Of a DNA stretch of 64,000 bases, positions 25,488 to 51,396 are shown in pieces. This DNA comes from a virus (taxonomy: Duplodnaviria; Caudoviricetes). Below the pieces are notes generated by a model, which was given only the letters and a program-made list of their open reading frames with translations, made no database searches and was not told the origin of the DNA. The DNA lies in the IMG/VR virus record IMGVR_UViG_3300014059_000005, positions 64,001-128,000 of that record; one strand, given 5' to 3'. The stretch's first letter is position 1; every line of letters starts with the position of its first letter. Made by a program: the position numbers and the translations under genes.

Positions 25488-25663
25488 TTCTCTTTTTTCT
25501 TTCTGAGAGCAACCCGGAAGCCCATGTCGTTGTATCGTAATGTTGGTCTGTACCCGATGCGGTACGACGACCTGTAGTTCCGGCCGACGCAGCCCCAGCA
25601 ACCACCCCGGCTCATCCAGAGGGAACCCTGAATGATCGGCCCAGGTTTAGCAATGAGGATCAT
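25484..25663 (-). CDS. Mini-cassette C5
   Basis: MILIAKPGPIIQGSLWMSRGGCWGCVGRNYRSSYRIGYRPTLRYNDMGFRVALRKKKEK. Confidence 0.85.
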   Translation of the reverse strand: MILIAKPGPIIQGSLWMSRGGCWGCVGRNYRSSYRIGYRPTLRYNDMGFRVALRKKKEK

Positions 25664-25836
25664 CAGCCCCTCTTTCTGAGGATTGCCCGGAAGCCCAGGA
25701 GGTTGTCCCGGAGCATCGGCACGAGCCTGAGGCAGCGTGCCGACCGGCAGTTCTGGCCGGGGCTGTACCAGCAGCCGCCCCGGATCACCTGGAAGGAGCC
25801 CTGGAGGATCGGTCCAGGTCTAGCGATCAGGATCAT
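25663..25836 (-). CDS. Mini-cassette C6
   Basis: MILIARPGPILQGSFQVIRGGCWYSPGQNCRSARCLRLVPMLRDNLLGFRAILRKRG. Confidence 0.85.
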   Translation of the reverse strand: MILIARPGPILQGSFQVIRGGCWYSPGQNCRSARCLRLVPMLRDNLLGFRAILRKRG

Positions 25837-26009
25837 CTCGACCTCTTTCTCAGGATCACCCGGAAGCCCAGATCGTGGTCCCGTTTCGGCGGCACGACCC
25901 TGCGGCGGTCCGCCGACCGGCAGTACAGGCCGTGACCGTTCCAGCAGCCGCCCCGGAACACCCGGTAGGAGCCCTGAATAATTGATTTAGGTTTAGCAAT
26001 CAGGATCAT
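25833..26009 (-). CDS. Mini-cassette C7
   Basis: MILIAKPKSIIQGSYRVFRGGCWNGHGLYCRSADRRRVVPPKRDHDLGFRVILRKRSR. Confidence 0.85.
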   Translation of the reverse strand: MILIAKPKSIIQGSYRVFRGGCWNGHGLYCRSADRRRVVPPKRDHDLGFRVILRKRSR

Positions 26010-26191
26010 TTCGATCTCTTTCTGAGGATTGCTCGGAATCCCAGGCCGTTTTCCCGATACGTTGGTGTATACCTGTGGCGGTACACCGACCGGCAGAACT
26101 GGCCGATGTTGACCCAGCAACCACCCCGGATCGTCTGGAACACCCGGTAGGAGCCCAGGGTGATTGATCCAGGTTTAGCAATCCGGATCAT
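26006..26191 (-). CDS. Mini-cassette C8
   Basis: MIRIAKPGSITLGSYRVFQTIRGGCWVNIGQFCRSVYR...LGFRAILRKRSK. Confidence 0.85.
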   Translation of the reverse strand: MIRIAKPGSITLGSYRVFQTIRGGCWVNIGQFCRSVYRHRYTPTYRENGLGFRAILRKRSK

Positions 26192-26373
26192 TAGCCTCTC
26201 TTTCTGAGGATTACCCGGAAGCCCAGATCGTCGTACCGGAACGCTGGTCTGTATCCGATGCGGTACGACGACCTATAGTTCTCGCCGACGCAGGCCCAAC
26301 TACCGCCCCGGATCGCCCAGATCACCCAGTGGGAGCCCAGGGTGATAGGTCTAGGTCTAGCAATCAGGATCAT
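26191..26373 (-). CDS. Mini-cassette C9 (first gene after promoter P1)
   Basis: MILIARPRPITLGSHWVIWAIRGGSWACVGENYRSSYRIGYRPAFRYDDLGFRVILRKRG; GAGGAG RBS. Confidence 0.85.
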   Translation of the reverse strand: MILIARPRPITLGSHWVIWAIRGGSWACVGENYRSSYRIGYRPAFRYDDLGFRVILRKRG

Positions 26374-26403
26374 TTGTCTCTCCTCTTTCCTTGCTGTGTC
26401 ACA

Positions 26404-26431
26404 ACTATGCACCAGGAATTCGGAAAGTCAA
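26404..26431 (-). promoter_or_regulatory. Conserved sigma70-like promoter P1 driving the cassette/FGE-core operon
   Basis: TTGACT-N16-CATAGT; the same architecture occurs at five other sites. Confidence 0.7.
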
Positions 26432-26450
26432 ATGAAAATGAAGAGTTCGG

Positions 26451-26780
26451 CTACAGCTTCCTGCGGTTGCGAAGTTCCGCATCCCCACCACAGAAGCGGC
26501 ACAGCTTGTGCTTCGTGGCGCAATTGGTACAGAGCACATCCACACAGGTGTTGCCATAGTGCATCTCCGTCTTGCACATTCCACACAGGGCTACGGTACA
26601 CATGGCACCACCGATACGGCCCCGCATGTAGTGGCAAACCCGGCACATGCATTTCTTCTTGCGGATCTCCAGATCGGGATCTTCGTAGCACTTTTTGACA
26701 GAATCGTAATATGCCTGTGAATAATTCGTCGCTCTCAAAACGGCACAGAGATCCCAGGGTTTGTAGATTGGCTCTCGCAT
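26451..26780 (-). CDS. Cys-rich Zn-finger hypothetical protein
   Basis: Several CxxC pairs (CRVC, CGMC, CTNC, CRFC). Confidence 0.6.
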   Translation of the reverse strand: MREPIYKPWDLCAVLRATNYSQAYYDSVKKCYEDPDLEIRKKKCMCRVCHYMRGRIGGAMCTVALCGMCKTEMHYGNTCVDVLCTNCATKHKLCRFCGGDAELRNRRKL

Positions 26781-27382
26781 GATAATAAACTCTTGCGAAT
26801 CTTGTTCAGGGCGTTGACATGGGACTGACTCACTGCTGATCGGGACACTCCCAGGCCATCGGCAATGTCGCACAGCCGTCTACCCTTGAGGTAGTGTTCT
26901 TCCAGTACGAATCGCTGATAGGGCTTCAGGACGGACAGGAGGGACTCACAAAGATCGGCATCGTCCAGGGTTCGCTTCCAGGAGCAATCGATGACAGGGA
27001 GGGCCTTGGGGTCATAGGGGACTCGGGTGGGCAATGGATAGACGACCTTGGCCTCGAAACTGCTCTTGCTCATGGGATGGTGTAGACTGCGAATATATCG
27101 CTGTATCTGGTTGCGGACACTCCTCCAGGCGTAAGTGCCGAAGCGGACCCCATGCCTGGAGTCATAGTTCCTGGCACATCTCCAGAGTGCCACATCCGCT
27201 ACCTGGACCAGTTCCTCGTAATCGAAGCACATCCCCAGGAATCTACCGTATTGGAGTGCCTTCTTGGCCAGGATTCTGGAGACTCCACGGTTCTCGGACC
27301 AGAGTAGTTCGATCCGGAGTCTCTCTTCTTCGGCGGACTTGCTCGTGGATTCTTTCGTGGACTTGCTCGTGGATTTGCTCAT
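26735..27382 (-). CDS. Sigma-70 family RNA polymerase sigma factor 1
   Basis: 'EELVQ.A..ALW.....YD...G..F.TYA' region 2; 'L...QR.V....Y..G.....IA..LGVS...VSQ....AL.KIR' region 4. Confidence 0.85.
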   Translation of the reverse strand: MSKSTSKSTKESTSKSAEEERLRIELLWSENRGVSRILAKKALQYGRFLGMCFDYEELVQVADVALWRCARNYDSRHGVRFGTYAWRSVRNQIQRYIRSLHHPMSKSSFEAKVVYPLPTRVPYDPKALPVIDCSWKRTLDDADLCESLLSVLKPYQRFVLEEHYLKGRRLCDIADGLGVSRSAVSQSHVNALNKIRKSLLSCESQSTNPGISVPF

Positions 27383-27401
27383 GACCGTGTACCCGAATCC
27401 C

Positions 27402-27434
27402 AAAGAGAGGGGGACACAACCGCCCCCTCTCTTT
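27402..27434 (-). terminator. Hairpin terminator
   Basis: AAAGAGAGGGGG...CCCCCTCTCTTT 12-bp inverted repeat. Confidence 0.6.
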
Positions 27435-27442
27435 CGCGAAGG

Positions 27443-27625
27443 TCACTTCTTGCTGGGTTTGGGTGCCAGTAACTTGGCGAGCAATTCCAGGGCCTTGTGT
27501 GTGGGCAATTCGGACAGGATCTTCCAGGATACGGCGTGGACTCGGGACACGTCCGCCACACCGATCTTGGTCTTCTCGGTGTCCACCTCGCTGGCCACGG
27601 CATTCTTGAACTCGGTCGGGGTCAT
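27443..27625 (-). CDS. Small basic protein
   Basis: 60 aa; ATGA-coupled; followed by the terminator. Confidence 0.55.
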   Translation of the reverse strand: MTPTEFKNAVASEVDTEKTKIGVADVSRVHAVSWKILSELPTHKALELLAKLLAPKPSKK

Positions 27626-28272
27626 CGGTCTATCTCGTGAGATTCAGAAGATATCTCCGGGGTCACATATTCGGTCCCGGAGTCCACAGGTCGGGTACGG
27701 ACCACGCTGCCCGTTACCAGCCTACGATTGTGGGTCACGAACAGGATCTGGAGTCCTAATTCTCTGGAGAGAGTCTCCAGGAGGAACCTCACTCGATCCT
27801 GGTATTCCTCGGAGACGAAGCGAAAGGGCTCGTCCAGGGCCAGGAATGTTCGTCTCCTGGTTCTGGATAATAACAGACAGGCCAGCCTCAGGGCAAAGGC
27901 ACTGACATCGATTACACCACCTCCACAGGACCCCAAGGGGTCCTCGACCTCTCTACCATGATCGAGAAGGGTGAGTGTAGCCTCGGTGCGGCCACGCTTG
28001 TCCTCGAAATCGATTCGCAGGGAATAGGTATCCTTGCCGAATACTGCTTCCAGGCATCTGGAGGCTATCTCGGAGACTCTACCGTGGCAGGCCTCCTGAA
28101 CCTGAACCGCAACTTCCTGGGCGATGGAGAGAGACTTTTTCAGGTGTTCCTGCTCCTGGATCAATTCCTGGGATCTGGAGGACTCACTGGAAGTATTCTT
28201 GATGGCAACCTGGTATTCCATCAGGAGAGGTCGCAATTGATTCCGATAACGATCCAGGGCGGTAGGCGTCAT
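27622..28272 (-). CDS. SbcC/Rad50-like ATPase, C-terminal half
   Basis: Signature 'CGGG', 'FALRL', Walker B 'LALDEPF', H-loop 'FVTH'. Confidence 0.85.
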   Translation of the reverse strand: MTPTALDRYRNQLRPLLMEYQVAIKNTSSESSRSQELIQEQEHLKKSLSIAQEVAVQVQEACHGRVSEIASRCLEAVFGKDTYSLRIDFEDKRGRTEATLTLLDHGREVEDPLGSCGGGVIDVSAFALRLACLLLSRTRRRTFLALDEPFRFVSEEYQDRVRFLLETLSRELGLQILFVTHNRRLVTGSVVRTRPVDSGTEYVTPEISSESHEIDR

Positions 28273-28445
28273 GAGGTTTTCTTTCTGAGGATTACCCGGA
28301 AGTCCAGATCGCTGAACCGGAACGTCGGCTCGAGCCTGCCACGGTACGCCGACCGGCAGTTCCGGCCGCTGCTGCTCCAGCCGCCGCCCTGGATCACCCG
28401 GCCAGAGCCCTGTAGGATCGGCCTAGGTCTAGCGATGAGGATCAT
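28269..28445 (-). CDS. Mini-cassette C10
   Basis: MILIARPRPILQGSGRVIQGGGWSSSGRNCRSAYRGRLEPTFRFSDLDFRVILRKKTS. Confidence 0.85.
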   Translation of the reverse strand: MILIARPRPILQGSGRVIQGGGWSSSGRNCRSAYRGRLEPTFRFSDLDFRVILRKKTS

Positions 28446-28618
28446 GGTGTTCTCTTTCTCAGGATTACCCGGAAGCCCAGGCCGTGGTTCCGAACCGCCG
28501 GCACGTACCTGTGGCAGCGTGCCGACCGGCAGTTCTGGCCGGGGCTGTACCAGCCACCGCCCCGGAACACTGAGAGGGAGCCCTGGATAATTGATCTAGG
28601 CCTAGCAATCAGGATCAT
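28442..28618 (-). CDS. Mini-cassette C11
   Basis: MILIARPRSIIQGSLSVFRGGGWYSPGQNCRSARCHRYVPAVRNHGLGFRVILRKRTP. Confidence 0.85.
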   Translation of the reverse strand: MILIARPRSIIQGSLSVFRGGGWYSPGQNCRSARCHRYVPAVRNHGLGFRVILRKRTP

Positions 28619-28791
28619 TTGTCTCTCTTTCTGAGGATTACTCGAAAGCCCCGGCTAAGATAGCGGAACGACGCAAAATATCTATAGCGGCGTGTCAATC
28701 CACAGGTCCCATAGCAGCTACGCCAACCACCACCCCGATACACTGGTTCATTTCCTTGAATGCCTGGTTTGGGTCTAACGATCTGGATCAT
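28615..28791 (-). CDS. Mini-cassette C12
   Basis: MIQIVRPKPGIQGNEPVYRGGGWRSCYGTCGLTRRYRYFASFRYLSRGFRVILRKRDK. Confidence 0.8.
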   Translation of the reverse strand: MIQIVRPKPGIQGNEPVYRGGGWRSCYGTCGLTRRYRYFASFRYLSRGFRVILRKRDK

Positions 28792-28862
28792 CTGTCTTTC
28801 TTTCTGAGGATTGCCCGGAAGGAGCCCCAGACAATCGGTCTGGGTTTGTTGATCCGGATCAT
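28788..28862 (-). CDS. 'Empty' mini-cassette C13 (variable region deleted in frame)
   Basis: MIRINKPRPIVWGSFRAILRKKDR; leader joined directly to tail. Confidence 0.75.
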   Translation of the reverse strand: MIRINKPRPIVWGSFRAILRKKDR

Positions 28863-29041
28863 TTCATATTCTTTTTCAGGATCAACCGCAATCCAAAGTT
28901 GTTGAACGTGGTTTGTGGAATGTACCCAACACGCCTGGCCGCTCGGCAGGGCCATTCATAGTTGAACCAGCCGGCCCCCCGAACCATGAGTTCTCGGCCC
29001 CGAAAGATCGGTCTAGGTCTAGCGATCAGGATCACGATCAT
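28859..29041 (-). CDS. Mini-cassette C14
   Basis: MIVILIARPRPIFRG...VRGAGWFNYEWPCRAARR...FGLRLILKK. Confidence 0.8.
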   Translation of the reverse strand: MIVILIARPRPIFRGRELMVRGAGWFNYEWPCRAARRVGYIPQTTFNNFGLRLILKKNMK

Positions 29042-31135: not shown

Positions 31136-31137
31136 TA

Positions 31138-31887: not shown

Positions 31888-31912
31888 GAGGGCTCCTGTG
31901 GGAGAGAGGGAT

Positions 31913-32546: not shown

Positions 32547-33290
32547 CTAGTTCTTTCCTAGCAGGAGGTCCAGCACCCAACAACCCCGGTAGTGCGAACT
32601 GCATTTCATCCAGCCGTGAAAGCCCCAGTCATGCTTACGGTAGTCATAACCACCACATGCCTGCTCGCTGCCATGTGATCCTCCGAAACACCACCGACAG
32701 GGCTCCCACCCTCGAAGGTGCCGTAGGATGTATCCGTTGTTGCATCCTGCCTCTTCCAGCGCGTCGGCGAGGACGGCAAGGCGTGCAGGGTCAAGAGTAC
32801 CATCTGTTGTATTGGGACAGGGGCGGATACACTCTCCTGGCAGCCACCCATCATAGCATTGGTTGCACCCACGGCAGCGTATATTGTAAGCTGCCTGGGC
32901 CAGGGAGATCGCAGCAGGGGTGAGCCAGGGGCACTTGTATGAGTTAGTAGGCCAGTGGAACTGTTTTTTGCACTCTTGACACCAGCATACGTCTTCTTCG
33001 CCCGTGACCATTACCCATCGGGCCGCACCACAATAATGACAGCAAGGACTTATTTTTGGTAGCACCACCTTGCGGAACGGATTGCCCACGATATCTCGAA
33101 TTATGTCGCACGTCCCGGCCAGGGGCTCGTCCTGCATGACAAGACTATGCAGGTTGAACCCGAAGCGAGCGAACACTGCGTCCTCGATGAAGTCCAACTT
33201 GTGCTGGCTCGTGACCTTCCCACCTCCGGTGGTTATCCAATCAACCATCAACTCTGGATCGGTGCATTCCAACCATTCGGATTCGGTCAT
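32547..33290 (-). CDS. Planctomycete-type 'MTExEW...RDIVGNPF...HYRGCW' family protein
   Basis: MTESEWLEC.DP; RDIVGNPFR; LA.LADALEEAGC; HLR; HYRGCWVLDLLLGK. Confidence 0.75.
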   Translation of the reverse strand: MTESEWLECTDPELMVDWITTGGGKVTSQHKLDFIEDAVFARFGFNLHSLVMQDEPLAGTCDIIRDIVGNPFRKVVLPKISPCCHYCGAARWVMVTGEEDVCWCQECKKQFHWPTNSYKCPWLTPAAISLAQAAYNIRCRGCNQCYDGWLPGECIRPCPNTTDGTLDPARLAVLADALEEAGCNNGYILRHLRGWEPCRWCFGGSHGSEQACGGYDYRKHDWGFHGWMKCSSHYRGCWVLDLLLGKN

Positions 33291-33294
33291 CGGC

Positions 33295-34095
33295 TCATTC
33301 CTTTCCCAGAATCAAGTCAATCGCCCAGCATCCTCGATAGTGTGAATCAGGACTGCGGAGATGGGTGAGGATGGAGTGAGTAACCTTTCCAGTGCCGCCA
33401 CAACGACATTGCTTCTTGGCTTTACCCTACTCGATCACCTCCTCCACCATGTCCCTGTCGTAGGATCCATCCGAGTTGATCTTTGCCTTTCGTAACACTG
33501 GGCACTCACCGCATTCCTCTTGCTCACACCCGGCCTCCTCCAGTGCGTCGCTGAGTATTTTCAGACGTTGCGGATCGAGCATACCGTGTGGCAATTCTTC
33601 TACCTTTGCGAGTTCCTTTCGGAAACGATCCAGATTGGAAGAGTACACACGGTAGGCACTGTCCGAGTAGCACCTGGACATGATGAACCGCTGAGTGTCG
33701 ATCATCTTCTCGATCCTTTCCACTTCCTCAGCCTTGTCCCACAGTTCGTCGTGTGCGGCTTGGGCCAGGGAAAGGACGGTAGGGGTGAGCCAGGGCGGGC
33801 ACGAGCATATCGATTGCGGATGGCGAACTGCTCGGTTCGGACAGCCTGGGTTGTCGTAGATCGCTGGCCTGAAAGGGCGGAATGGATTGCCCACGATGTC
33901 TCGGATGATATCACACCCATCCACTGGAGGCTTGTCCTGCACGACGAGATCATCCAAATTCAATCCAAAGCGGTTGAATACTGCATCCTCGATGCACCGC
34001 AACTTGTACTGGCTTGCGACCGGCCCTCCCCCGGTAGTCACCCAGCCAACCATCGACTCCGGGTCCGAGCATTCCAACCATTCGCTCTCGGTCAT
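33295..34095 (-). pseudogene. Second GCW-family paralog interrupted by an in-frame TAG (33427-33429)
   Basis: After the TAG the same frame continues GKAKKQCRCGGTGKVTHSILTHLRSPDSHYRGCWAIDLILGKE*. Confidence 0.75.
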
Positions 34096-34603: not shown

Positions 34604-34783
34604 TTATTTCTTCTCGGATGATGTTCTGTATTCATCATTTCTCTTTCTCAGGACAACCCGGAAGCCCAGGTCGTCGTACCGGAATGTTGGCTCGTCCACG
34701 TAGCGGTACGCCAACCGGCAGTCGCCCCGGAGCACCCGCTCGGAGCCCTGAATGATCGGCTTAGGTCTAGCGATGAGGATCAT
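34604..34783 (-). CDS. Mini-cassette C15 (24-nt internal deletion)
   Basis: MILIARPKPIIQGSERVLRGDCRLAYRYVDEPTFRYDDLGFRVVLRKRNDEYRTSSEKK. Confidence 0.75.
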   Translation of the reverse strand: MILIARPKPIIQGSERVLRGDCRLAYRYVDEPTFRYDDLGFRVVLRKRNDEYRTSSEKK

Positions 34784-34968
34784 TAGCCCCTCTTTCTGAG
34801 GATTACCCGGAAGCCCAGGAGGTCAATCCGGTCCATCGGATTGAACCTGCCACGGAGTCCCGAACGGCGATGTCGTTCGGGACTCATCCAACTGCCGCCC
34901 CGGATCACCCGGTAGAGACCCTGAACGCTGGACCTGGGTCTGGGGATCAGTACCAGTGAACTAGCCAT
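34783..34968 (-). CDS. Mini-cassette C16
   Basis: MASSLVLIPRPRSSVQGLYRVIRGGSWMSPERHRRSGLRGRFNPMDRIDLLGFRVILRKRG. Confidence 0.8.
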   Translation of the reverse strand: MASSLVLIPRPRSSVQGLYRVIRGGSWMSPERHRRSGLRGRFNPMDRIDLLGFRVILRKRG

Positions 34969-40336: not shown

Positions 40337-41011
40337 TCATACAGCAACTTTTGTGGGTTTGGATACACGCTGGCCGCAGCCCATTTCCTCTCTGAGCTTC
40401 TTGCGTGCATTGTCCAGCAATGTTCGCACGTTGTAGTATCCAAGACCCATCGCGAGTGCGGCCTCCTGGTAGGTCATCCCTTGTAAATAGCACAACTGAA
40501 CTGCTCTCAGTTGCTGTGCCGTCAGGCATCGTTTTGCGATGGAAAGAACCCAGGTGTACTCCTCATCCTGGTCCAGGTGTGGTGTCTCGGTGTAGTGTGG
40601 GTGCTGGGCGTCCGGAGGCATTGGCTCGATCTGGGTTCTCATGCGTGCCTGCCGCTTCTCCTCACCTTTTATGTTGTAGGGGAGGCGTATCACCCCCCTG
40701 ACCCGCACCAGTTCACGCCACACCTTCTGACGGATCCAGTCGCTGGCGTAACTTGCGAATGTTCCCAGCGAGGGATCCCACGACTCCGCAGCCCGGAGCA
40801 GTCCCAGAAATGCTGCTTGCCGTAGATCCTCGAATAGATCCTGGTCGTGGCGGACAGCATTCTTTGCGTACCTCGATACTCCCCATGCGGCCAGCCGCTG
40901 GTTCTCCTCGACGAGTTTGTTCCGCTCCTCAGTTGACCTCACGGACCTCCTCTCATGTGGGTCCTGGGCCACTTCTTCCAGGCGGGCCATCGCATCATGC
41001 AGTGCTGACAT
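40337..41011 (-). CDS. Sigma factor 2
   Basis: 'RNKLVEEN.RL', 'EDL.Q....GLLRA.E.WDP..G.F.SYA..WIR'; region-4 HTH. Confidence 0.88.
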   Translation of the reverse strand: MSALHDAMARLEEVAQDPHERRSVRSTEERNKLVEENQRLAAWGVSRYAKNAVRHDQDLFEDLRQAAFLGLLRAAESWDPSLGTFASYASDWIRQKVWRELVRVRGVIRLPYNIKGEEKRQARMRTQIEPMPPDAQHPHYTETPHLDQDEEYTWVLSIAKRCLTAQQLRAVQLCYLQGMTYQEAALAMGLGYYNVRTLLDNARKKLREEMGCGQRVSKPTKVAV

Positions 41012-41762: not shown

Positions 41763-42037
41763 TTCTTTCCTTTCTTGGGTTCTGGGGATTCCTCGAACAT
41801 CTCGAACTGTTCCAGGAACTCTTTCTGAGTGATAACCCAGCGCAGGGCGGAATCTGGACGGTTGAGCCAGCGAGTATGGAATACCACCAGGGGCTCCAGA
41901 TCGGACTCTCTCAGAGCAAGTTCACAGATGCGGTAGACCTTACTACAGACATTACCATCTCTGGATTTCTCCCTCCAGAGCCTACCTCTGGGAATCTGAT
42001 TCTGGAGATTCAGAAGTTCTTCTACGGTTTCTGGCAT
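41759..42037 (-). CDS. Hypothetical protein (DUF1653-like 'LE..VV......W.....F' pattern)
   Basis: AGGA RBS; weak motif resemblance. Confidence 0.4.
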   Translation of the reverse strand: MPETVEELLNLQNQIPRGRLWREKSRDGNVCSKVYRICELALRESDLEPLVVFHTRWLNRPDSALRWVITQKEFLEQFEMFEESPEPKKGKK

Positions 42038-42219
42038 GGATTCCTAGCCTGTTGTTTTCTCAGGATTACCCGGAAGCCCAAGTAGTTGAACCTGTACAAC
42101 GATACGACCCTATGGCGGTCCGCCGACCGGCAATATTGGCCGAAGTTGAACCAGCTGCCGCCTCGGAGCACCCGATCAGAGCCTTGAATAATCGGCTTCG
42201 GTCTAGCAATCAGGATCAT
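42022..42219 (-). CDS. Mini-cassette C17
   Basis: MILIARPKPIIQGSDRVLRGGSWFNFGQYCRSADRHRVVSLYRFNYLGFRVILRK. Confidence 0.85.
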   Translation of the reverse strand: MILIARPKPIIQGSDRVLRGGSWFNFGQYCRSADRHRVVSLYRFNYLGFRVILRKQQARNPCQKP

Positions 42220-42392
42220 GTCGTTCTCTTACGAAGGACAAGTCTCAATCCCACAAGGACAGATACTCCATCAGGCACAAACCAGCAACGGTACGCCGAA
42301 CGGGTCCAATCTTCGTTTGATGGGCGGCTACCGCCTCGGAGTATGGGCTCGACTCCCTGTAAGATCGGTTTGGGCTTTGTTATCAGGATCAT
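42216..42392 (-). CDS. Mini-cassette C18
   Basis: MILITKPKPILQGVEPILRGGSRPSNEDWTRSAYRCWFVPDGVSVLVGLRLVLRKRTT. Confidence 0.8.
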   Translation of the reverse strand: MILITKPKPILQGVEPILRGGSRPSNEDWTRSAYRCWFVPDGVSVLVGLRLVLRKRTT

Positions 42393-42565
42393 GATACTTT
42401 CTTTTTGAGGATTACTCGAAATCCCAGATCGCAGGACGAGGGCAGTGGCTCGTTCCCGTAGCGGAGCGATGACCGGTAACTCAGAACGAAGTCGTACCAA
42501 CTACTGCCCCGGATCACCCAGAGGGAGCCTGAGATGATCGGTCTAGGTCTGGCAATGAGGATCAT
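42389..42565 (-). CDS. Mini-cassette C19
   Basis: MILIARPRPIISGSLWVIRGSSWYDFVLSYRSSLRYGNEPLPSSCDLGFRVILKKKVS. Confidence 0.85.
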   Translation of the reverse strand: MILIARPRPIISGSLWVIRGSSWYDFVLSYRSSLRYGNEPLPSSCDLGFRVILKKKVS

Positions 42566-42744
42566 GGTGTTCTCTTGCGGAGAATGATGCGGAGGCCCAG
42601 GAAGAAGCCCGGGCCTGTCGGATCATACCCATAGCGGTCCGCCGATCGGCAGAACCGGCTGTACCCGTACCAGCTACCGCCCCGGAACACTCGGGACAGA
42701 TTTTCTGACCCGATCATCTTGTTGATATTGGATATCGTAATCAT
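42562..42744 (-). CDS. Mini-cassette C20
   Basis: ...SRVFRGGSWYGYSRFCRSADRYGYDPTGPGFFLGLRIILRKRTP (different leader). Confidence 0.8.
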   Translation of the reverse strand: MITISNINKMIGSENLSRVFRGGSWYGYSRFCRSADRYGYDPTGPGFFLGLRIILRKRTP

Positions 42745-42754: not shown

Positions 42755-43291
42755 CTAGATATCGGCTGGGGTCAAGCCCAGAGAAGCAATCATTTGGGAT
42801 AATTTCTTGCTGGCTTTCCCTGAATAGTATTTGCTCTGGTGGGTGGTAGTTCCCAGAGCCACGGCGGTGTCCTCACAAGTCATTCCCGATTCATATCGCA
42901 ACTGGATTACTTCACGCTCGCGATCGGTCAGTGACCCCAGCAGAGTTCGGTAGATTTCCACTATCCAGCATTGCCTGAATGGATCGATGGCCGTATCGGG
43001 AATCAGTAGCAAAGGAGCAGGTCCATCGATTGCTGCCCGATCTCCTGGACGGATAGATCCCATAAGATTGGAAATCTTCCAGGCTTCCCTCTGGATTGCC
43101 CGTAATACCGATGGCCAGGCATAGTTGCGAAATTGCATACCCAGACCAGGGCGATAGGCCAGGGTGCATCTCCACAAGGACATCCTGCCGGCCTGCTGAA
43201 GGTCTTCCAGAGGGCATCGGCGAAAGTTGCGATGGACTCTGGAAGCGATCCGAATCGGGATCCAGGCGTGCTCACGATAGAGACTTTCCAA
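42755..43291 (-). CDS. Sigma factor 3 (start uncertain)
   Basis: 'EDLQQAG..SLW.C...Y.P..G..F.NYA'; 'LTDREREVI.LRY..G.T....A..LG'. Confidence 0.8.
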   Translation of the reverse strand: MESLYREHAWIPIRIASRVHRNFRRCPLEDLQQAGRMSLWRCTLAYRPGLGMQFRNYAWPSVLRAIQREAWKISNLMGSIRPGDRAAIDGPAPLLLIPDTAIDPFRQCWIVEIYRTLLGSLTDREREVIQLRYESGMTCEDTAVALGTTTHQSKYYSGKASKKLSQMIASLGLTPADI

Positions 43292-43317
43292 TTGATCTCT
43301 ATCTAGTAGACCATTAC

Positions 43318-43911
43318 CTAGCGGACCACCGCATGGGTCAGGCCGGTTTGATTCTGGTACTTGCCTGCTTTGTCCGCATAGCTCACCCGGCACATCGAAT
43401 CCCCTCGCAAGAACAGAGCCTGGAGGATTCCCTCGTTCGCATAGACCCGGACTGGCATGGGTCCGGAGTTGGAGATTTCCAGAGTGACCTTGCCACGCCA
43501 CTCCGGCTCCAGAGGCGTGACGTTGACGATGATCCCACACCGTGCGTAGGTGCTCTTCCCCAGGCAGATCGCGATGATGTCCCGGGGGATTTCCAGATAC
43601 TCCAGGGTCTCTCCCAGGACGAAGGAGTGGGGCCTGATGATCACGCTGTCCCCCTCGTATTCCTCCCAGAGTTCGGGATCGTGGACCTTGGGATCCAGTA
43701 TCTTGTTTCGGTGTTCTGGGGGCAAATCCTCGAAGTCCTTGAGAATCCTGAACTTGCGCCCCAGTCGCAGGTCATACCCGTAGCTCGACACACCGTAGGA
43801 GATAAGACCCTGACCACTAACCGGATGGGACCAGGGAGCGATACGAACCTCACGGGCAATCTGGTGATCAGCAAGGGCCATGTTACTCTCCAATCTTGGA
43901 AAAGAGATCAC
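43318..43911 (-). CDS. dcd: dCTP deaminase
   Basis: 'ISYG.SSYGYD.R', 'GKSTYARCGIIVNVTPLEPEW.G..TLE.SN', 'SY.DK.GKYQ.Q.G'. Confidence 0.95.
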   Translation of the reverse strand: MISFPRLESNMALADHQIAREVRIAPWSHPVSGQGLISYGVSSYGYDLRLGRKFRILKDFEDLPPEHRNKILDPKVHDPELWEEYEGDSVIIRPHSFVLGETLEYLEIPRDIIAICLGKSTYARCGIIVNVTPLEPEWRGKVTLEISNSGPMPVRVYANEGILQALFLRGDSMCRVSYADKAGKYQNQTGLTHAVVR

Positions 43912-44096: not shown

Positions 44097-44272
44097 TTCA
44101 ATCTCTTTCTTAGGGCAACCCGGAAGCCCAGATAGTTGTCCCGATTCGACGGCACGAGCCTATCGCGGTACGCCGACCGGCAGTACCAGTTGTCGTAGCT
44201 AGACCAACTGCTGCCCCGGAACATCCGGTAGGAGCCCAAGGTGATAGGTCTAGGTCTAGCGATCAGGATCAT
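44093..44272 (-). CDS. Mini-cassette C22
   Basis: MILIARPRPITLGSYRMFRGSSWSSYDNWYCRSAYRDRLVPSNRDNYLGFRVALRKRLK. Confidence 0.85.
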   Translation of the reverse strand: MILIARPRPITLGSYRMFRGSSWSSYDNWYCRSAYRDRLVPSNRDNYLGFRVALRKRLK

Positions 44273-44445
44273 TTATCTCTCTTTCTCAGGACAACACGGA
44301 AGCCCAGATCGCTGAACCGGAACATCGGACCATTTCTAACGCGGGGCGACAACCGGCAGTACAGGTCGCCGCTGACCCAGCCACCGCCCCGAAACACCCG
44401 GTAGGGGCTCTAAATGATCGGCTTAGGTTTAGCGATCAGGATCAT
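44269..44445 (-). pseudogene. Mini-cassette C23 with TAG at codon 12
   Basis: MILIAKPKPII*SPYRVFRGGGWVSGDLYCRLSPRVRNGPMFRFSDLGFRVVLRKRDK; paralogs often have CAG at this position. Confidence 0.8.
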
Positions 44446-44456
44446 GTGGATTCCTC

Positions 44457-45059
44457 TCAAGCTCCCAGACCGGCCCCGTCATGGTATCGGAACAACCCAC
44501 AGGCAAGCAGTTTGCCCCGTGACGCCTCGATGGTGGCACTGACGGCCTGCGGGGACACCCCCAGCACCTTCGCCGTCTCGATCATGGATCCGGTCCCCGT
44601 CGGGCCGTAGACGGACCACATGATCTGGTACTGGCGTGGGGTCAGGGTGGCCTCGATCCTTTCCCACAACTCTTCCAGTTCGATCTTCGATCCCGGCCTT
44701 TCGTTTGCCAGCAACCACCCCAAAGAGTCCCCCTCGATGCTCTGGCAGCTGAGTCTTCGTATCTGCTCCCGGAGTGACTCCTTGGTGTGCTGCTCCGGGA
44801 TGTGGATGATCGTTCGCAGTACACTCGCCTCCCTGCGGAGACCCCTTTCCATCCAGACGGTGGCATACGTCGAGAAGGCGATTCCCCGCAACGGGTCCCA
44901 CTTCTCGGCCGCACGGATCAGGAGTAGCGTGGCGATCTGCACCAGGTCGTCCATGTCGTTCTCGTCCTGGCAAGCCCACCGCCCGAACCTCTGGGCTGCC
45001 GCGTGGGCCAGTCCCAGGTTCCCCTCGATCAACCTGTTCCGATGCTCGACGTCGCTCAC
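44457..45059 (-). CDS. Sigma factor 4
   Basis: 'RN.LIEGNLGL', 'DDL.Q.....LIRAAEKWDP.RG..FSTYA..W'; region-4 HTH. Confidence 0.88.
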   Translation of the reverse strand: MSDVEHRNRLIEGNLGLAHAAAQRFGRWACQDENDMDDLVQIATLLLIRAAEKWDPLRGIAFSTYATVWMERGLRREASVLRTIIHIPEQHTKESLREQIRRLSCQSIEGDSLGWLLANERPGSKIELEELWERIEATLTPRQYQIMWSVYGPTGTGSMIETAKVLGVSPQAVSATIEASRGKLLACGLFRYHDGAGLGA

Positions 45060-45235
45060 CGCTCCAGCCTCCGCTTCAGAATCAACCGGAAGCCCCGACC
45101 ACTACTCAGATATATCGGGGCAACCAATAGACGACTCGCCGATCGAACATACCGGCTATTGTTGCTCCAGTAACCACCCCGGATCACCTGGTGGGAGCCC
45201 CTGAGAATCGGTTGGGGTCTAGGGATCAGGATCAT
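45056..45235 (-). CDS. Mini-cassette C24
   Basis: MILIPRPQPILRGSHQVIRGGYWSNNSRYVRSASR...GFRLILKRR. Confidence 0.8.
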   Translation of the reverse strand: MILIPRPQPILRGSHQVIRGGYWSNNSRYVRSASRLLVAPIYLSSGRGFRLILKRRLER

Positions 45236-45368
45236 GGTGTTCGCTTTCTCAGGGCCAGTACCCGTCGCGGTAGGCGGACCAGAGGATCCCACCGACCCAG
45301 CCACCCCGGAGCACCCGAGACGAGGCCCCTACAACGACGATGTTTTTCGGTTTAGATATCAGGATCAC
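45232..45368 (-). pseudogene. Truncated mini-cassette C25
   Basis: VILISKPKNIVVVGASSRVLRGGWVGGILWSAYRDGYWP*; the LRKRTP tail is present but out of frame (3' deletion). Confidence 0.65.
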
Positions 45369-45550
45369 GGGACCTTCTTTCTCAGAACCAGCCGGACCCC
45401 GTAGTCGCGGACCCGGAAGTCCGGCTCGATCCAGTTGTGGAAGGCGGACCGGCAATACCTTCCGTAGAGGCAGCTACCGCCCCGGAGCACGCGAGCCGAG
45501 GCCCCGACCAGGGTAACGGTTAGCGGTGATCTGACGATGGTAAACTTCAT
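45365..45550 (-). CDS. Mini-cassette C26
   Basis: ...GASARVLRGGSCLYGRYCRSAFHNWIEPDFRVRDYGVRLVLRKKVP. Confidence 0.8.
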   Translation of the reverse strand: MKFTIVRSPLTVTLVGASARVLRGGSCLYGRYCRSAFHNWIEPDFRVRDYGVRLVLRKKVP

Positions 45551-45864
45551 GGCAACCCCCCGCTATCCCGGCACAGTTCCTCCAGTTCCTCGGGCACGGG
45601 GATGCTGTGTTCGGTCAGCAATCGTAGCACGTCCTGGGGCCGGATCCGGTAGTGGGAGGCGTTGCCCACACGAGTGCCCTTGAGGATCCCACGCTCGATC
45701 CACCTGTGGACCGTGCCGATGGACATGGAGGTCAGGCGGGCCACGTCCCCGGTGGTCAGGTTGTTACCCAGGGGGCGGTTCTTGCCCTTGGGTTTGTACG
45801 TCTTGGGTTTGATCGCCTTGGGCGTGATTGCTTTGGGCGTGGCTGCCTTGGTGTTTTCGCTCAT
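45547..45864 (-). CDS. Excisionase/MerR-like HTH DNA-binding protein
   Basis: 'LTTGDVA.L..MS..TV.RWI..G.LKG.RV.....YRI...D...L'. Confidence 0.8.
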   Translation of the reverse strand: MSENTKAATPKAITPKAIKPKTYKPKGKNRPLGNNLTTGDVARLTSMSIGTVHRWIERGILKGTRVGNASHYRIRPQDVLRLLTEHSIPVPEELEELCRDSGGLP

Positions 45865-47369
45865 GCCGCTAACTTCACCTTCTTCTTGTGGTGCCAGGAC
45901 TGGTCGGGCTCACACAACTCGGCCTCGATCTCCAGGGGTACGATGATCCACTTCCAGTGTTCGGGCAGCTTCTGGGTGATGTAGTACCGGATCTGGTGGA
46001 TCACGTCCTGTACCTCGTCGGGATGACAGTCCAGGATCATGGAGTCGTGGATCTGCCCCACGATCCGGGATCGCATCTTCTTCCTCCGGAGCCAAGACTC
46101 GGTCCAGATCAGGGCCTGGAGCAGACAGTGGAAACTAGACGATTGTACAGGATAGTTCGTAGCGTCGTTGCGGGAGAGCAGTCCACCCTTGCCCCAGCGC
46201 ATGTAGAAGCCGGTGTAGTTATAGAAGCCCTTGTTCTCCAGATAGGCTTCCCACCACTTCTGCTTCCATCTCTTGTAGACCGAGAAGCGGTTCTCCCAGA
46301 AATCATTCTCCACTCTGCGGATATGGTGTTCATAGGTCCCAGGAATCGGTCTGCCCCTGGGATCACAGCGACCCAGTTCGGTGATTCCCAGAGATGCCAG
46401 GTGCTCCTGGAGCAGAGGCCCAGTGGCTTTCTTGCCATCATCTCCGGGCAGTTTGATCCGTAATTGCATCTGGCCCAGGGCTTCCCACAGATGGGGAGCA
46501 CACTGGAAGTAGACAGAGCCATAGAACTGGGGGAAGACGAACTTGTTCTTCGCACAGTAGCGAGACTGATCAGATACTTTTTCTATCGGAATTAGATAAC
46601 ATTCTGCCGCCATATCTCGGTGCATGTCGGACTTTGGGTTATGGAGGTACTCCCCCATCACCGGGTCCTTGTGGTAGCAGTAGGCTATCCGCACCTCGAT
46701 ACCAGAGAGGTCCATCTCCAGGAGTTGGTATCCCGGTCTGGGAACGAAGCAGGACCGCACGATCCCCGCCATCAGAGGATTGCGCACGGGTAAATTTTGG
46801 AAGTTAAGAGATCCTCCAAAGTCTCCTTGGGACTTGTCGCTACCCGAAGAAGATCGGTAGGTAGCCGCTGTATGCAGATTGAAGGTGGGGTGCAGATAGC
46901 CGTCCACCACCTCTCTGCGGATACCCTTCAGGAAGGTTCCCCTGGCCTTCTTCAGGGTGCGGATGTCGGCGTACTTACGGAGAAAGGGTAGGTCGATCTC
47001 CTGGAGTACAGCCTTGTCGGTAGACGCCAGACCTGTCTTCGTGGTTTTCTTGGATTCGTAGCCCAGGGCAGTGAACAGAATGTGTCGTAGTTGCTCTGGA
47101 GAGTCCAGGTTCGTGGACTCTCCATACACACTCTTCCACTGTTTGTAGGTGGTGTCCGATTCTAGATCGGTCATTCCTATCCGGATCTGGGCATCGATAT
47201 CCCCGTCCACCCGCGAGAGGTATTCCTCATCGATACGAATACCGGCATCTTCGACCCTCGACAGGGCCAGCACACCATCATGGAACAGTTGGTAGGCTTC
47301 GGGGAGGGCTGGCTGCAACGCTGCAACTCCTAACGTAACTCCTAACGCAACTACTCCTGACTTGCCCAC
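45861..47369 (-). CDS. Family A DNA polymerase, polymerase domain only
   Basis: 'N.QNLP', motif A 'D.SGIEVR', motif B 'R..AK...F...YG', 'N.PVQ', motif C 'QIHDS'. Confidence 0.92.
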   Translation of the reverse strand: MGKSGVVALGVTLGVAALQPALPEAYQLFHDGVLALSRVEDAGIRIDEEYLSRVDGDIDAQIRIGMTDLESDTTYKQWKSVYGESTNLDSPEQLRHILFTALGYESKKTTKTGLASTDKAVLQEIDLPFLRKYADIRTLKKARGTFLKGIRREVVDGYLHPTFNLHTAATYRSSSGSDKSQGDFGGSLNFQNLPVRNPLMAGIVRSCFVPRPGYQLLEMDLSGIEVRIAYCYHKDPVMGEYLHNPKSDMHRDMAAECYLIPIEKVSDQSRYCAKNKFVFPQFYGSVYFQCAPHLWEALGQMQLRIKLPGDDGKKATGPLLQEHLASLGITELGRCDPRGRPIPGTYEHHIRRVENDFWENRFSVYKRWKQKWWEAYLENKGFYNYTGFYMRWGKGGLLSRNDATNYPVQSSSFHCLLQALIWTESWLRRKKMRSRIVGQIHDSMILDCHPDEVQDVIHQIRYYITQKLPEHWKWIIVPLEIEAELCEPDQSWHHKKKVKLAA

Positions 47370-47386
47370 TCCTGGATCATCTGTTC

Positions 47387-47680
47387 CTAGTGGAGCAACT
47401 CTTCCCGGACCACGTCCATGCTCCTGGGGGCTCGGATCCCCAGTTTCATCCGCTTGGTGGTGTGATAGATCACATCGAGGCGGATCTCGCCATATTCGGT
47501 CTGTATGATAACCATGTCCCGATCATTACACAGGATATCGTGATACCTGGTATTCTTCTCCCTGGTATTCTGCTCCCTGGTGTCATCATCCGAACTCGGG
47601 CACGGCGGTTCCGTCTGGGTGGTAGATGGTGAAGCTCGATTGTCTCTTTGGCTGGTCAAATGCCTCGACTTGCTGCCCAT
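47387..47680 (-). CDS. CsrA/RsmA-like translational regulator (start uncertain)
   Basis: C-terminal 'MKLGIRAPRSMDVVREEL' resembles CsrA 'VRIGI.AP..V.V.REE'. Confidence 0.6.
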   Translation of the reverse strand: MGSKSRHLTSQRDNRASPSTTQTEPPCPSSDDDTREQNTREKNTRYHDILCNDRDMVIIQTEYGEIRLDVIYHTTKRMKLGIRAPRSMDVVREELLH

Positions 47681-47960
47681 GTGGTTCCTCGTCTTCCTGG
47701 GTTTGGTCGCTCTCGCGTTCGTAAGTACGATCGTTGTCTCGTAGGAGCCTGCCAGGGCCGTACAGACGCACCACGGCGTTCTTGCGCAAGAAGGTACGAA
47801 AGTAGTCGTAAGAGGCTCTGGCGTCTGTCTCGTTGACGGAAACGATGGGGATCCTGGTGCCCTTGCGGTAGTCGAAATCGATCTCCACCCGCCACATCGA
47901 ATCCCCGGTATTCTTGTCTGCTGTCGCATTCTTGTCTGCTGGTGTATTCTTTTCTGACAT
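47586..47960 (-). CDS. Hypothetical protein
   Basis: AAGGA RBS; ORF. Confidence 0.5.
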   Translation of the reverse strand: MSEKNTPADKNATADKNTGDSMWRVEIDFDYRKGTRIPIVSVNETDARASYDYFRTFLRKNAVVRLYGPGRLLRDNDRTYERESDQTQEDEEPHGQQVEAFDQPKRQSSFTIYHPDGTAVPEFG

Positions 47961-47973
47961 CGAATTCCTTCCC

Positions 47974-48867: not shown

Positions 48868-48903
48868 GTGGACTCCGTTGTCTGAAATGGTATCTGGTGG
48901 CTT

Positions 48904-49665
48904 TCAGAGAACCTTGGCCGGGGCCTCATTGTTGTCAATTTCTGGTTTGGTACGCGGTGGGTAGACCTGGGACAGAAAGTAGCGTTGCATGCTACCGATC
49001 TCCAGGCATACACCAATGAGTTCCAATCCGACCTGAGACACCTCATGGCGAACAGGAATGACAGTAAGGTCCTTGGCCACGAGGGACTCATGGTGATAAT
49101 AGAACTTCATCGGAGTTACGCCACCAGTCATCCAGTGCCGCAATAGTTTCTCCCGGAAGTCCTTGACTCGAATCCTGTAGCGTTCGTGCCGACACTCGTA
49201 CTCCCATCTGTCTCGCGAGGTCTCCAGTCCCCGCACCTTGGCTTCCAGAGCTTCGATCTTGGCTGGATCTCCACCCTTACGGGACTTCTCGAATGCCTCG
49301 CGGAGACCATCCAGGGCCGTGACGAAACTGGAATCGAAATCCGAGGATGTGGAGAGTTCCTTCAGACCGCACTCGGGAACCGGCATCGGGGTCTGTTCGG
49401 TCTTCTCTCCTTGTTTCTCCAGGTGCTCCCAGAGCCTGGGCCAGTATTCCAGGTTCTCCTTACGACACAGGTAGCCGATGCTCTTGATATTGTCCGTGTT
49501 CATGGAGACATCGGTGTTGATGGTACTGGCCACGCCTCGGGGGCAGTTCTGGAGAAACTTACCGTCCCCGATCAGAACGATGAAGTCCCGCCCATCGATC
49601 CACCGCACCATGTAGAGCCCCGGACGCAAACGCCTTACCTTTTCGGAGTCCATAACGAAGTCCAT
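48904..49665 (-). CDS. Hypothetical protein
   Basis: GGAGG RBS; 253 aa. Confidence 0.55.
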   Translation of the reverse strand: MDFVMDSEKVRRLRPGLYMVRWIDGRDFIVLIGDGKFLQNCPRGVASTINTDVSMNTDNIKSIGYLCRKENLEYWPRLWEHLEKQGEKTEQTPMPVPECGLKELSTSSDFDSSFVTALDGLREAFEKSRKGGDPAKIEALEAKVRGLETSRDRWEYECRHERYRIRVKDFREKLLRHWMTGGVTPMKFYYHHESLVAKDLTVIPVRHEVSQVGLELIGVCLEIGSMQRYFLSQVYPPRTKPEIDNNEAPAKVL

Positions 49666-49935
49666 AGCGCCCTCCGACTACTGTTTACCACCAAGGGTAT
49701 ATGCCACCACCGCGTAGAGACACAAAACCAGGATCGCCGCCAGGACTGCGTGCAGTCCTTCTACCCACAAGGACTCCGCATGGGGTGTCCATTCCGGATC
49801 CCACTCAGCATCGATTCTTACCACCATGCGATCTCCCTCGTGGTGTTCCTCATGGTGTCCCTTTCGAGTGGACTCGACGTGATCCAGACACCTATCACCG
49901 CAACGCCCGTTCGTGTTGTCTTTGCACATGATGGG

Positions 49936-49963
49936 AGTATGCACTCTGAATCGGATTTGTCAA
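49936..49963 (-). promoter_or_regulatory. Conserved promoter P3
   Basis: TTGACA-N16-CATACT. Confidence 0.6.
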
Positions 49964-49986
49964 ACGGAAATCTTTGGAAAGTATGA

Positions 49987-51201
49987 CTAGACCAGGCCCA
50001 GTTGATGCATCTGATGACTGCAAATCTTGTGCTCCAGCAGAGAATCCAGACCACAGTAGAGCAACAGGGGCTCCCAGCCATGACGCCGAACGAAGTCCCG
50101 TAGTCTGTTGGCGGTGTTGCCGCCGCTGGCCTTCATGTAGGGCTTGACGGTATGGTCATAGGCGTCCATCCCCAGAAGGGCGAATGCCTGGAATTTGAGC
50201 CCCGTAACCCCCTGGCGATTATCCAGAATGTGGGCGGCGATCATACCATCGAGCCCGGCGTCCCAGTTGTTCACCTCTACCCCGTAGAGGGTACGAACCC
50301 AGGTGGTCTCGAACTTGATATTATAACCTAGTTTGGGAGTATTCGACTCCAGAAAGTCCAGAGTAGCCTCCTGGGTCTTCCTGGTCCAGGGGTAGGCTAT
50401 GGACTCCCTACCGTCACTGAGTGAACAACAGAGGATCTCGGCGTCCCTGGGGTAGGGTTTGAGCATGTTGGTTTCCAGATCCCACGCCACTGGACGGGAT
50501 CCGATCATACTATGGATGCACGAGACGGCCTCCCCATCATCCAGAATCGTCCGGACCCGCTTGCGGTAGTCGGGGACGGTCTGGTAGGGGGGAGATCCCA
50601 CCAGGGCGATGGCGTCGGCCAGGACATCCTGGAACACCGACAGATAGGGATCTGGCCCACCATTTCTGGGCTCGTTGCGAAGGACATGAGCGGGGTGAAA
50701 GTTGGGTACGATCCAGCAGTTGAGTTGTTGATGGGGGATAGTCCAGCCTACCCACTTGTTGATACCTCCTGGGTCCTCCTTCCAGACCCAGCCAAGGACG
50801 CTGCGGACGGCAGCACCGCCCAGGAGGATCATGACCTCGGGTTTCAGTTCCCGAACCTTCTGGACGACCAGGGGACGGCAGTAATCGACTGCTTTCTCGG
50901 GGAGTAGGTTACGTGGAGGGTGACAGGATAGAGCATTGGTGATCCAGCAATCCTGACGCATGTCGATACCGAGACGGAGAAGGGTCCTGGCCAGAAGGTC
51001 TCCGGATCGACCACAGAAGGGCCTGCCCTGGAGATCCTCGTTGTCGCCAGGTGCCTCACCAACGATGAGGATTTTCTTCTGGCCCTTGCCCGAGAGCGGC
51101 ATCTTGGGAGTGCGACATTGCTTGAGAAGACCACACTTGCCACAGTTGGGGAGCAGGGGGATTTCGATCCGTTTGTGATCGCTGACACCAAAGAATCCCA
51201 T
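49987..51201 (-). CDS. Family-4 uracil-DNA glycosylase-like domain fused to a DnaQ-like 3'-5' exonuclease (polymerase N-terminal subunit)
   Basis: 'C..C.L', 'VGEAPG..ED..G.PF.G.SG..L', 'N...C.PP.N', 'HPA'; Exo I 'DLET', Exo II 'N..FE', Exo III 'YCGLD'. Confidence 0.88.
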   Translation of the reverse strand: MGFFGVSDHKRIEIPLLPNCGKCGLLKQCRTPKMPLSGKGQKKILIVGEAPGDNEDLQGRPFCGRSGDLLARTLLRLGIDMRQDCWITNALSCHPPRNLLPEKAVDYCRPLVVQKVRELKPEVMILLGGAAVRSVLGWVWKEDPGGINKWVGWTIPHQQLNCWIVPNFHPAHVLRNEPRNGGPDPYLSVFQDVLADAIALVGSPPYQTVPDYRKRVRTILDDGEAVSCIHSMIGSRPVAWDLETNMLKPYPRDAEILCCSLSDGRESIAYPWTRKTQEATLDFLESNTPKLGYNIKFETTWVRTLYGVEVNNWDAGLDGMIAAHILDNRQGVTGLKFQAFALLGMDAYDHTVKPYMKASGGNTANRLRDFVRRHGWEPLLLYCGLDSLLEHKICSHQMHQLGLV

Positions 51202-51204
51202 ATG

Positions 51205-51396
51205 TCACCGTGCTGGGGAATTCATTGGAGATTTTCGCAGAGCGATACGGAAGCCCAGGAGGCTGTACCGGAACGACGGCCCGCTCTTGTCGCGGTACGC
51301 CGACCGGCAGTCCCGGCCGAGGCTGCGCCAGCCACCGTTCCGGACCACCCGGTCGGAGCCCCGAATAATCGGTCCAGGTTTAGCAATCAGGATCAT
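51205..51396 (-). CDS. Mini-cassette C27
   Basis: MILIAKPGPIIRGSDRVVRNGGWRSLGRDCRSAYRDKSGPSFRYSLLGFRIALRK. Confidence 0.85.
   Translation of the reverse strand: MILIAKPGPIIRGSDRVVRNGGWRSLGRDCRSAYRDKSGPSFRYSLLGFRIALRKSPMNSPAR

Follow-up and report, generated by a model that had tools for sequence, protein, structure and literature searches.

Stand-alone variable-region mini-genes of probable retroelement origin beside a truncated FGE-sulfatase gene in a complete phage genome

Mini-gene arrays and the body gene

The virus record IMGVR_UViG_3300014059_000005 (Caudoviricetes) is a 139,665-bp genome that is rated complete by CheckV, and its bases 64001–128000 form the 64,000-nucleotide stretch analyzed here (the window). 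The window contains a family of small open reading frames (ORFs) of 57–63 residues, the mini-genes or cassettes, whose products resemble the variable region (VR) at the C-terminus of proteins diversified by diversity-generating retroelements (DGRs). The mini-genes are located on the minus strand in eight arrays between other genes, with a spacing of mostly 173 nt, and are chained by ATGA stop/start overlaps. A hidden Markov model (HMM) built from the mini-genes identifies 27 copies in the window over positions 23868–51599, one of which is fused to a larger gene encoding a truncated FGE-sulfatase domain (the body gene). The whole genome contains 38 usable copies, including nine plus-strand copies at genome 10.7–13.6 kb and three copies near 134–138 kb. 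Given that copies occur on both strands, the mini-genes follow the local gene orientation.

An earlier description of the window, made from the sequence alone (the sequence-only reading), had noted repeated variable cassettes. The repeated units exist, each with an ATG start preceded by a ribosome-binding site (RBS)-like element, AGAAAGAG, and the two units for which it spelled out codon strings (28272–28445 and 51208–51396) agree exactly in translation. Its count of approximately 28 copies lies near the 27 HMM hits, which extend beyond the range of 25663–51396 that it gave. The body gene and the arrays are as follows.

24483..25487, minus strand: body gene, 335 aa, with an N-terminal fused degenerate cassette (approximately residues 1–55), a helical linker and the FGE-sulfatase domain
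23871..24483, minus strand: array A, three mini-genes (23871–24122, 24122–24295 and 24295–24483) just downstream of the body gene; all are HMM hits, and the first and last are divergent
25487..26373, minus strand: array B, five mini-genes (25487–25663, 25666–25836, 25836–26009, 26009–26191 and 26194–26373)
28272..29041, minus strand: array C, four mini-genes (28272–28445, 28445–28618, 28618–28791 and 28862–29041) and a remnant (28791–28955), downstream of SbcCD-like genes
34607..34968, minus strand: array D, two mini-genes (34607–34783, with an internal deletion, and 34786–34968), downstream of a RecA-like gene
42025..42744, minus strand: array E, four mini-genes downstream of a sigma-factor gene; identical in contig L210 and different at one site in contig L211
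43911..44409, minus strand: array F, two mini-genes and a 5′-truncated copy without a start codon (44272–44409); identical in L210
45059..45550, minus strand: array G, three divergent or decayed copies (45059–45235, 45252–45368, which is truncated, and 45368–45550)
51208..51566, minus strand: array H, two mini-genes (51208–51396, designated C27 in the sequence-only reading, and 51396–51566)

A start codon and the upstream RBS-like purine stretch AGAAAGAG are retained in 36 of the 38 copies. The purine stretch of each unit is built from the tail codons of the preceding unit, and the conserved 3′ ends of the cassettes double as codons for the tail residues and as the RBS of the next gene. Framework codons change less at positions 1 and 2 (0.33) than at position 3 (0.53). 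Judged from these start signals, the ATGA coupling and the constraint on framework codons, the mini-genes look like translated genes. Decay is found at 44272–44409, which lacks a start, at the truncated copy 45252–45368 and at the remnant 28791–28955.

The FGE-sulfatase domain is split between the body and the cassettes

Each mini-gene matches only positions 211–254 of the 255-position Pfam FGE-sulfatase profile (PF03781), and unit 24122–24295 of array A passes the Pfam cut-off over this segment. The end segment of the profile is the VR carrier in the TvpA class of DGR targets (PMC5758913). The body gene is the sole FGE body in the genome, and its Pfam match covers profile positions 7–207/208 and then ends. 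No single polypeptide covers the whole domain (profile 1–255), which is divided between the body (7–208) and the cassettes (211–254) in separate ORFs.

The split domain is kept in every relative examined (L002/L003, L213, L001 and L215). In L002/L003, the body is 77% identical to that of the window phage, ends at the same truncation, carries an N-terminal fused unit and is directly followed downstream by six to seven mini-genes. The body and mini-genes of L213 are arranged as in the window phage. In the distant lineage L001, a 152-aa body (profile 32–192) follows five two-module genes and one single-module gene. In L215 (10528–11409), a 293-aa protein contains three VR modules fused ahead of a truncated FGE body in a circular-permutation-like order, which is echoed by the degenerate N-terminal unit of the window body gene. 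The protein database contains 2,117 small relatives (31–147 aa) with one, two or three VR modules each. A search of viral contigs for relatives of the two-module protein P0027 returned none. A programmed frameshift from the body into the next cassette (overlapping frame 24295–24558) was considered and set aside because this copy is degenerate and relatives keep the genes separate.

The predicted complex of the body and a cassette scores 0.94, compared with 0.25 for the best control. Of 80 solved complexes, 58 reach the mark applied to this score, as do 2 of 110 mismatched pairs. At least 98% of contacts are shared between the prediction runs, and the partner has a predicted local distance difference test (pLDDT) value of at least 87. 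Because full-length structures have been solved for the fold that the two partners make up, the result speaks for structural complementarity by likeness, not for binding. In an AlphaFold2 model of a two-module protein alone, the pLDDT is 46.5 and the predicted template modelling score is 0.23, values too low for a confident fold.

Cassette variation carries a DGR signature

Thirteen codon columns of the cassette alignment (HMM columns 19, 22, 28–30, 33, 38, 40, 42, 46 and 48–50) are hypervariable at codon positions 1 and 2, with an entropy of 1.5–1.97 bits. The third base in these columns is C in 310, T in 125, G in 31 and A in 22 cases (89% C/T). The sequence-only reading had assigned this variation to DGR adenine mutagenesis on the grounds that variable codons are mostly NNC between fixed G, C and T bases. 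The pyrimidine bias at position 3 bears out the first part in the form NNY rather than NNC. The flanking bases are not fixed: non-A first and second positions differ in ∼20% of the cells and third positions in 38%, and the columns read as cNg, gNg or Ncg (32, 41, 43 and 45) show variation at each of the three codon positions.

A count of mismatches against the template that the sequence-only reading had inferred, as it had suggested, gives 70% (codon position 1) and 59% (position 2) at inferred A sites, compared with 22% and 19% at non-A sites of positions 1 and 2 and 38% at third positions. This comparison is circular, since the inference of the template relied on the variable columns, and three independent tests, on divergence rates, codon choice and real templates, were therefore made. 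In the closest cassette pairs, A-type sites differ at ∼0.58, near saturation, in comparison with 0.16 at third positions and 0.09–0.13 at other first and second positions.

Codon choice provides one independent test. At the 13 columns, the amino acids whose codons allow either a pyrimidine or a purine at position 3 (L, R, S, P, T, V, A and G) are encoded by 182 codons, of which 154 have C or T there, compared with 104 expected from the long ORFs of the phage itself (z = 7.7, a value that is overstated because the copies are paralogues and not independent samples). Residues whose codons always have a purine at position 3 (K, E, Q, M and W) account for 25 of 488 cells (5%), compared with a background of 17%.

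A further independent test uses real templates. Pattern scans of viral and bacterial contigs yielded, among the matches listed, 104 independent templates in register with the cassettes. As a positive control, a DGR reverse transcriptase (RT) is located nearby in 82 of 126 template-bearing loci among the listed matches. The variability of each cassette site at codon positions 1 and 2 follows the adenine frequency in the 104 listed templates (Spearman 0.81; Mann-Whitney p = 2.7e-7), and the correlation is 0.80 when columns fixed by the search pattern are excluded. The template inferred by the sequence-only reading is near-identical to real templates such as those of L137, L130 and L088. In viral contigs, one clear DGR (L072/L073) was found among 79 viral FGE loci (blastn, default scoring); the strict template pattern is present only in L072/L073, and a looser pattern adds six more.

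The attribution of the variation to a DGR is thus borne out by the independent templates and by codon choice. DGR adenine mutagenesis (AAC to NNC) very probably wrote the cassette diversity. Hypervariable codons of NNC/NNY form lie on template Asn codons, as a sequence pattern that identifies the cassettes as DGR-derived VRs of the C-type lectin CLec1 type.

VR-only genes are DGR targets in a distant lineage

The nine modules of L001 are near-identical to one another at non-adenine sites, including synonymous ones. Thirty-three of the 96 columns vary, only three of which are third positions, and 114 of 117 AAC-type codons end in C. A 27-nt string of the template reconstructed from these modules matches 19 metagenome loci. 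The template at one of them, L228:5297–5428, equals the reconstruction at 69/69 non-A and 27/27 A sites of a 96-nt core. Against this template, the nine modules show mismatches at 142 of 243 adenine cells and at 9 of 621 non-adenine cells. This distribution against a real template indicates that VR-only mini-genes are genuine DGR targets in the L001 lineage. The stand-alone VR layout, which the sequence-only reading had called very unusual for a DGR, is real and in this distant relative is tied to a true template and RT.

The L228 template is located just downstream of genes for an RVT_1 RT, an HRDC protein and a 1,129-aa target that contains a kinase, a zinc ribbon and a full-length FGE domain. 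Judged from 6 kb of the 41.6-kb contig, this DGR looks cellular in its gene architecture. The RT is otherwise present only on contigs of up to 3 kb. No matching template or RT is found within 10 kb of the L001 modules (20 kb around them), and neither is found in ∼50 kb around the L215 modules.

The window cassettes appear static with respect to adenine mutagenesis and change by recombination

The complete 139,665-bp genome contains no RT candidate in a PF00078 search, and tblastn with the L072 DGR RT gives E values of 1.6 or higher. An AAC-rich template copy is likewise absent from the complete genome, so the sequence-only observation that neither element is visible in the window extends to the entire phage. 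A near-identical, AAC-rich repeat beside an RT, which the sequence-only reading had named as support, was not returned by blastn of the inferred template across the genome, where the best matches are only cassettes at up to 81%. The external templates (104 plus the 19 loci matched by the L001 string, among the matches listed) reach at most 87% identity to window cassettes at non-A sites, and most reach no more than 83%. The best fit among those listed, at 87%, is between L200, a Gemmataceae metagenome-assembled genome (MAG), and the decayed copy 45368–45550. The L228 template is 78–83% identical to the window cassettes at these sites.

Strain comparisons are consistent with a static state. L210, which represents the same or nearly the same phage from another run, shows one mismatch in 5,627 nt and no change at 182 A-type sites. 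L211, from another run, shows 44 differences in 3 kb (1.9% outside the cassettes), one of them in a cassette, and no change at 104 A-type sites. Approximately 30 of the 44 differences in L211 cluster outside the cassettes in 90 nt (43495–43585), near the junction of the dCTP-deaminase and sigma-factor genes, and this cluster looks like a recombination patch.

L213 is 97–100% identical to the window over most of 24507–28307. It lacks exactly one 173-nt unit of array B (window 25849–26022) and differs in a 75-nt mosaic patch (25720..25794, minus strand) within cassette 25666–25836. A-type, non-A and third positions differ in this patch, and the 3′ hypervariable codons of the cassette are untouched. 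The window version of the patch is identical to the paralogue 28508–28566 at 56 of 59 nt and shares with it a 42-nt exact tract across hypervariable columns. The nature of the changes and the match to a paralogous donor indicate gene conversion rather than retrohoming.

A single active template would homogenize non-A sites, and the 19–38% difference at such sites makes one unlikely. An active DGR on the window cassettes is not supported, given the missing RT and template, the drift at non-A sites, the poor fit of templates, the static strains and the conversion patch. The cassettes are best read as a frozen or fossil, or captured, library of former VRs and not as an active mutator. A DGR acting on some 28 copies, as envisaged in the sequence-only reading, does not agree with the free variation of third and non-A sites, an outcome that in part answers to what this reading had itself named as a refutation, or with strains and relatives that show no A-specific change. 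Among the options that the same reading offered, capture or fixation after diversification fits best.

Origin and possible function of the mini-genes

These observations are best combined in a joint interpretation that is considered likely: the mini-genes are translated VR-only genes, a library that was written by a DGR, is now frozen and turns over by recombination, and their products complete a scaffold in trans. DGR adenine mutagenesis (AAC to NNC) would have generated the diversity in an ancestor or in trans. The process would since have stopped in the window phage, and the copies would have drifted at all sites. Present change would consist of gain and loss of whole 173-nt units and of short gene-conversion patches between paralogues. 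Each mini-protein may complete the truncated FGE scaffold (24483–25487) in trans as its missing C-terminal segment, as the modeled complex suggests, and dozens of alternative binders would then arise from one body. A role of the mini-proteins in counter-defence is conceivable by analogy, because a function as antigen sensors has been proposed for FGE-type DGR targets of multicellular bacteria (PMC10907252, PMC7159879).

Three other explanations account for parts of the data. The pattern could have arisen, with no DGR at any time, from ordinary duplication and point mutation together with diversifying selection on the residues that contact the ligand. The C-type lectin fold would place the hypervariable residues toward the ligand, repertoires rich in Y, S, N, D and G are also known from other binders, variation affects every codon position in columns 32, 41, 43 and 45, and gene conversion and unit indels are demonstrably operating. 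Selection on the protein, however, leaves the synonymous preference for Y-ending codons (154/182 versus 104 expected) unexplained. The near-absence of residues with purine-only third positions, the high per-site agreement with template adenines and the pristine signature with a matching template in L001, a relative of the same architecture, also speak against this origin, which is regarded as improbable. A DGR could instead still be active in trans, with an RT and template of the host or of a co-infecting element rewriting the cassettes during infection. Diversification of remote targets in trans has been described (PMC10907252). The L001 modules are near-pristine relative to the template of a cellular-type DGR, which is not located in the surrounding 20 kb, the ∼50 kb around the L215 modules contain no RT, and the best template matches at the DNA level, among those listed, come from planctomycete MAGs. 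Continued rewriting from one template would, however, homogenize non-A sites, and even the closest window copies differ at 14–16% of third and ∼9% of other first and second positions. L210 and L211 show no A-type change, and no listed template matches beyond 87%. In the one changed cassette of L213, non-A and third positions are hit and the 3′ codons are intact, the opposite of 3′-anchored retrohoming. Ongoing activity in trans is accordingly given very little probability.

The least probable of the three is silent-cassette antigenic variation, in which the mini-ORFs would be donors recombined onto the body gene and not stand-alone proteins. Conserved sequence flanks the units, segmental gene conversion is seen between copies, and arrays are located directly upstream and downstream of the body gene, all of which would suit such a system. 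However, a body with a resident C-terminal segment, onto which donors would recombine, is found in none of the window phage, L002/L003, L213, L001 and L215. Nearly all units also keep their own ATG, RBS and stop, the arrays are scattered over 28 kb and both genome strands are used, and in relatives, the two- and three-module proteins have start codons of their own.

Several points weigh against the preferred interpretation of a frozen, DGR-written library that completes a scaffold in trans. The DGR origin rests on the variation pattern and on relatives, since no cognate template was found for the window phage. The template scan of the genome collection used one pattern, which a host template could have escaped. 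Part of the signature could also result from strong diversifying selection on binding residues if the ancestor was rich in NNC codons, and the codon-choice statistic is inflated by paralogy as stated above. The strain comparisons take in 7 of the 27 window cassettes. Complementation of the scaffold is suggested by structure prediction, a test in which the two halves of any known fold would be expected to score well. In the AlphaFold2 model of the 335-aa body with its fused cassette, the pLDDT is below 50 over residues 1–136, and the cis-fused cassette has no confident placement. With regard to the site of action, the arrays are located amid early and replication genes and not among tail genes.

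A broader and more tentative proposal, possible but less likely to hold than not to, concerns the phage group as a whole. These phages may encode a split lectin, composed of a truncated scaffold and VR peptides acting in trans, in which the peptides are written by a DGR outside the phage, probably a host antigen-sensor DGR, and may afterwards, as in the window, become frozen and be shuffled through gene conversion. If so, the system would be a two-stage and partly parasitic route to a combinatorial repertoire of binders. The finding raises the testable question of whether phages use the DGRs of their hosts.

Genomic context of the arrays

The first 23.8 kb of the window contain plus-strand structural genes. 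The remainder is a minus-strand replication and early module that encodes PolA, a RecA-like protein, a clamp-loader ATPase, SbcCD-like proteins, ThyX, dCTP deaminase, UDG and four sigma-70-like proteins. The sigma-70-like genes, all on the minus strand and with regions 2 and 4, are listed below.

26735..27403, minus strand: sigma-70-like gene
40337..41011, minus strand: sigma-70-like gene
42755..43540, minus strand: sigma-70-like gene
44457..45059, minus strand: sigma-70-like gene

A mini-gene array directly follows three of these four genes, the exception being 40337–41011. The order of a sigma-factor gene and then cassettes is also present in L002, L210 and L213.

PolA (45861–47369, minus strand) has a best identity below 28% among 50,697 deposited phage records, and this lack of a relative above 28% indicates that the phage lineage itself is undescribed. 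Next to it, a 180-aa ORF (47387–47929, minus strand) has a C-terminal segment of 32 residues that matches the CsrA family exactly at the gathering score. A 219-nt direct repeat with 75% identity (33072–33290 and 33877–34095) joins the neighboring ORFs 32547–33290 and 33427–34095, an apparent paralogous pair with no assigned function. Two 40-nt stem-loop-like copies (37238–37277 and 37410–37449) are 85% identical and have a GGGGAC...GTCCCC closure. Outside the window, ∼130 nt from the start of the record are present again at its end, which indicates a circular assembly or terminal redundancy despite the linear label.

Comparison with known systems

Silent-copy systems such as Neisseria pilS/pilE and Borrelia vls vary a protein by segmental gene conversion from cassettes. 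The window arrays likewise consist of variable cassettes with conserved flanks and short-patch exchange, as do orphan C-terminal toxin cassettes of polymorphic toxins (PMC3482391). Unlike the pilS and vls type, none of the five lineages has an expression site with a resident copy, and the window cassettes carry their own ATG and RBS. RpnS, a small variable C-terminal piece made separately that could dock on a larger protein, is similar by analogy only; it has an unrelated fold, is an intragenic product and acts as an antitoxin, unlike the window mini-genes (PMC10327210).

The closest likeness in sequence is to the TvpA-class CLec1 proteins of Treponema denticola (Wu et al. 2018, PMC5758913), which share the VR segment, the fold family and hypervariable NNC/NNY codons at template Asn positions. 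In the TvpA class, the VR is the C-terminus of a full-length domain beside a template and RT, whereas in the window phage it is encoded by 38 separate genes of 57–63 aa, the body gene is truncated, neither an RT nor a template is found and non-A sites have diverged.

Paul et al. (2015, PMC4372165) interpreted RT-less DGR fragments as "fossils or remotely diversified targets", and cellular clade-5 DGRs are described as having targets at remote sites or in trans (PMC10907252). These cases resemble the window in having VR-like sequences with a history of adenine mutagenesis and no RT at the locus. They differ in that they are full target genes in a DGR-bearing genome, whereas the window contains VR-only mini-genes in a complete phage genome in which no RT or template was found. 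A search of DGR surveys turned up neither VR-only genes nor a truncated FGE scaffold, and remote targets and RT-less "fossil" fragments (PMC4372165) are the nearest printed concepts.

Described DGR targets are full-length proteins with the VR at one end, encoded either beside their retroelement or away from it, and the window phage and its relatives depart from them in three respects. The VR exists as dozens of separate mini-genes, apparently translated, beside a scaffold that lacks this piece. The layout recurs in several phage lineages. The modules of one lineage match a real template beside an RT, and the window phage has a frozen library that changes through recombination. If scaffold completion by the mini-proteins holds true, this arrangement would be a new way from hypermutation to a heritable multi-allele repertoire, in which interchangeable tips are carried by one fold.

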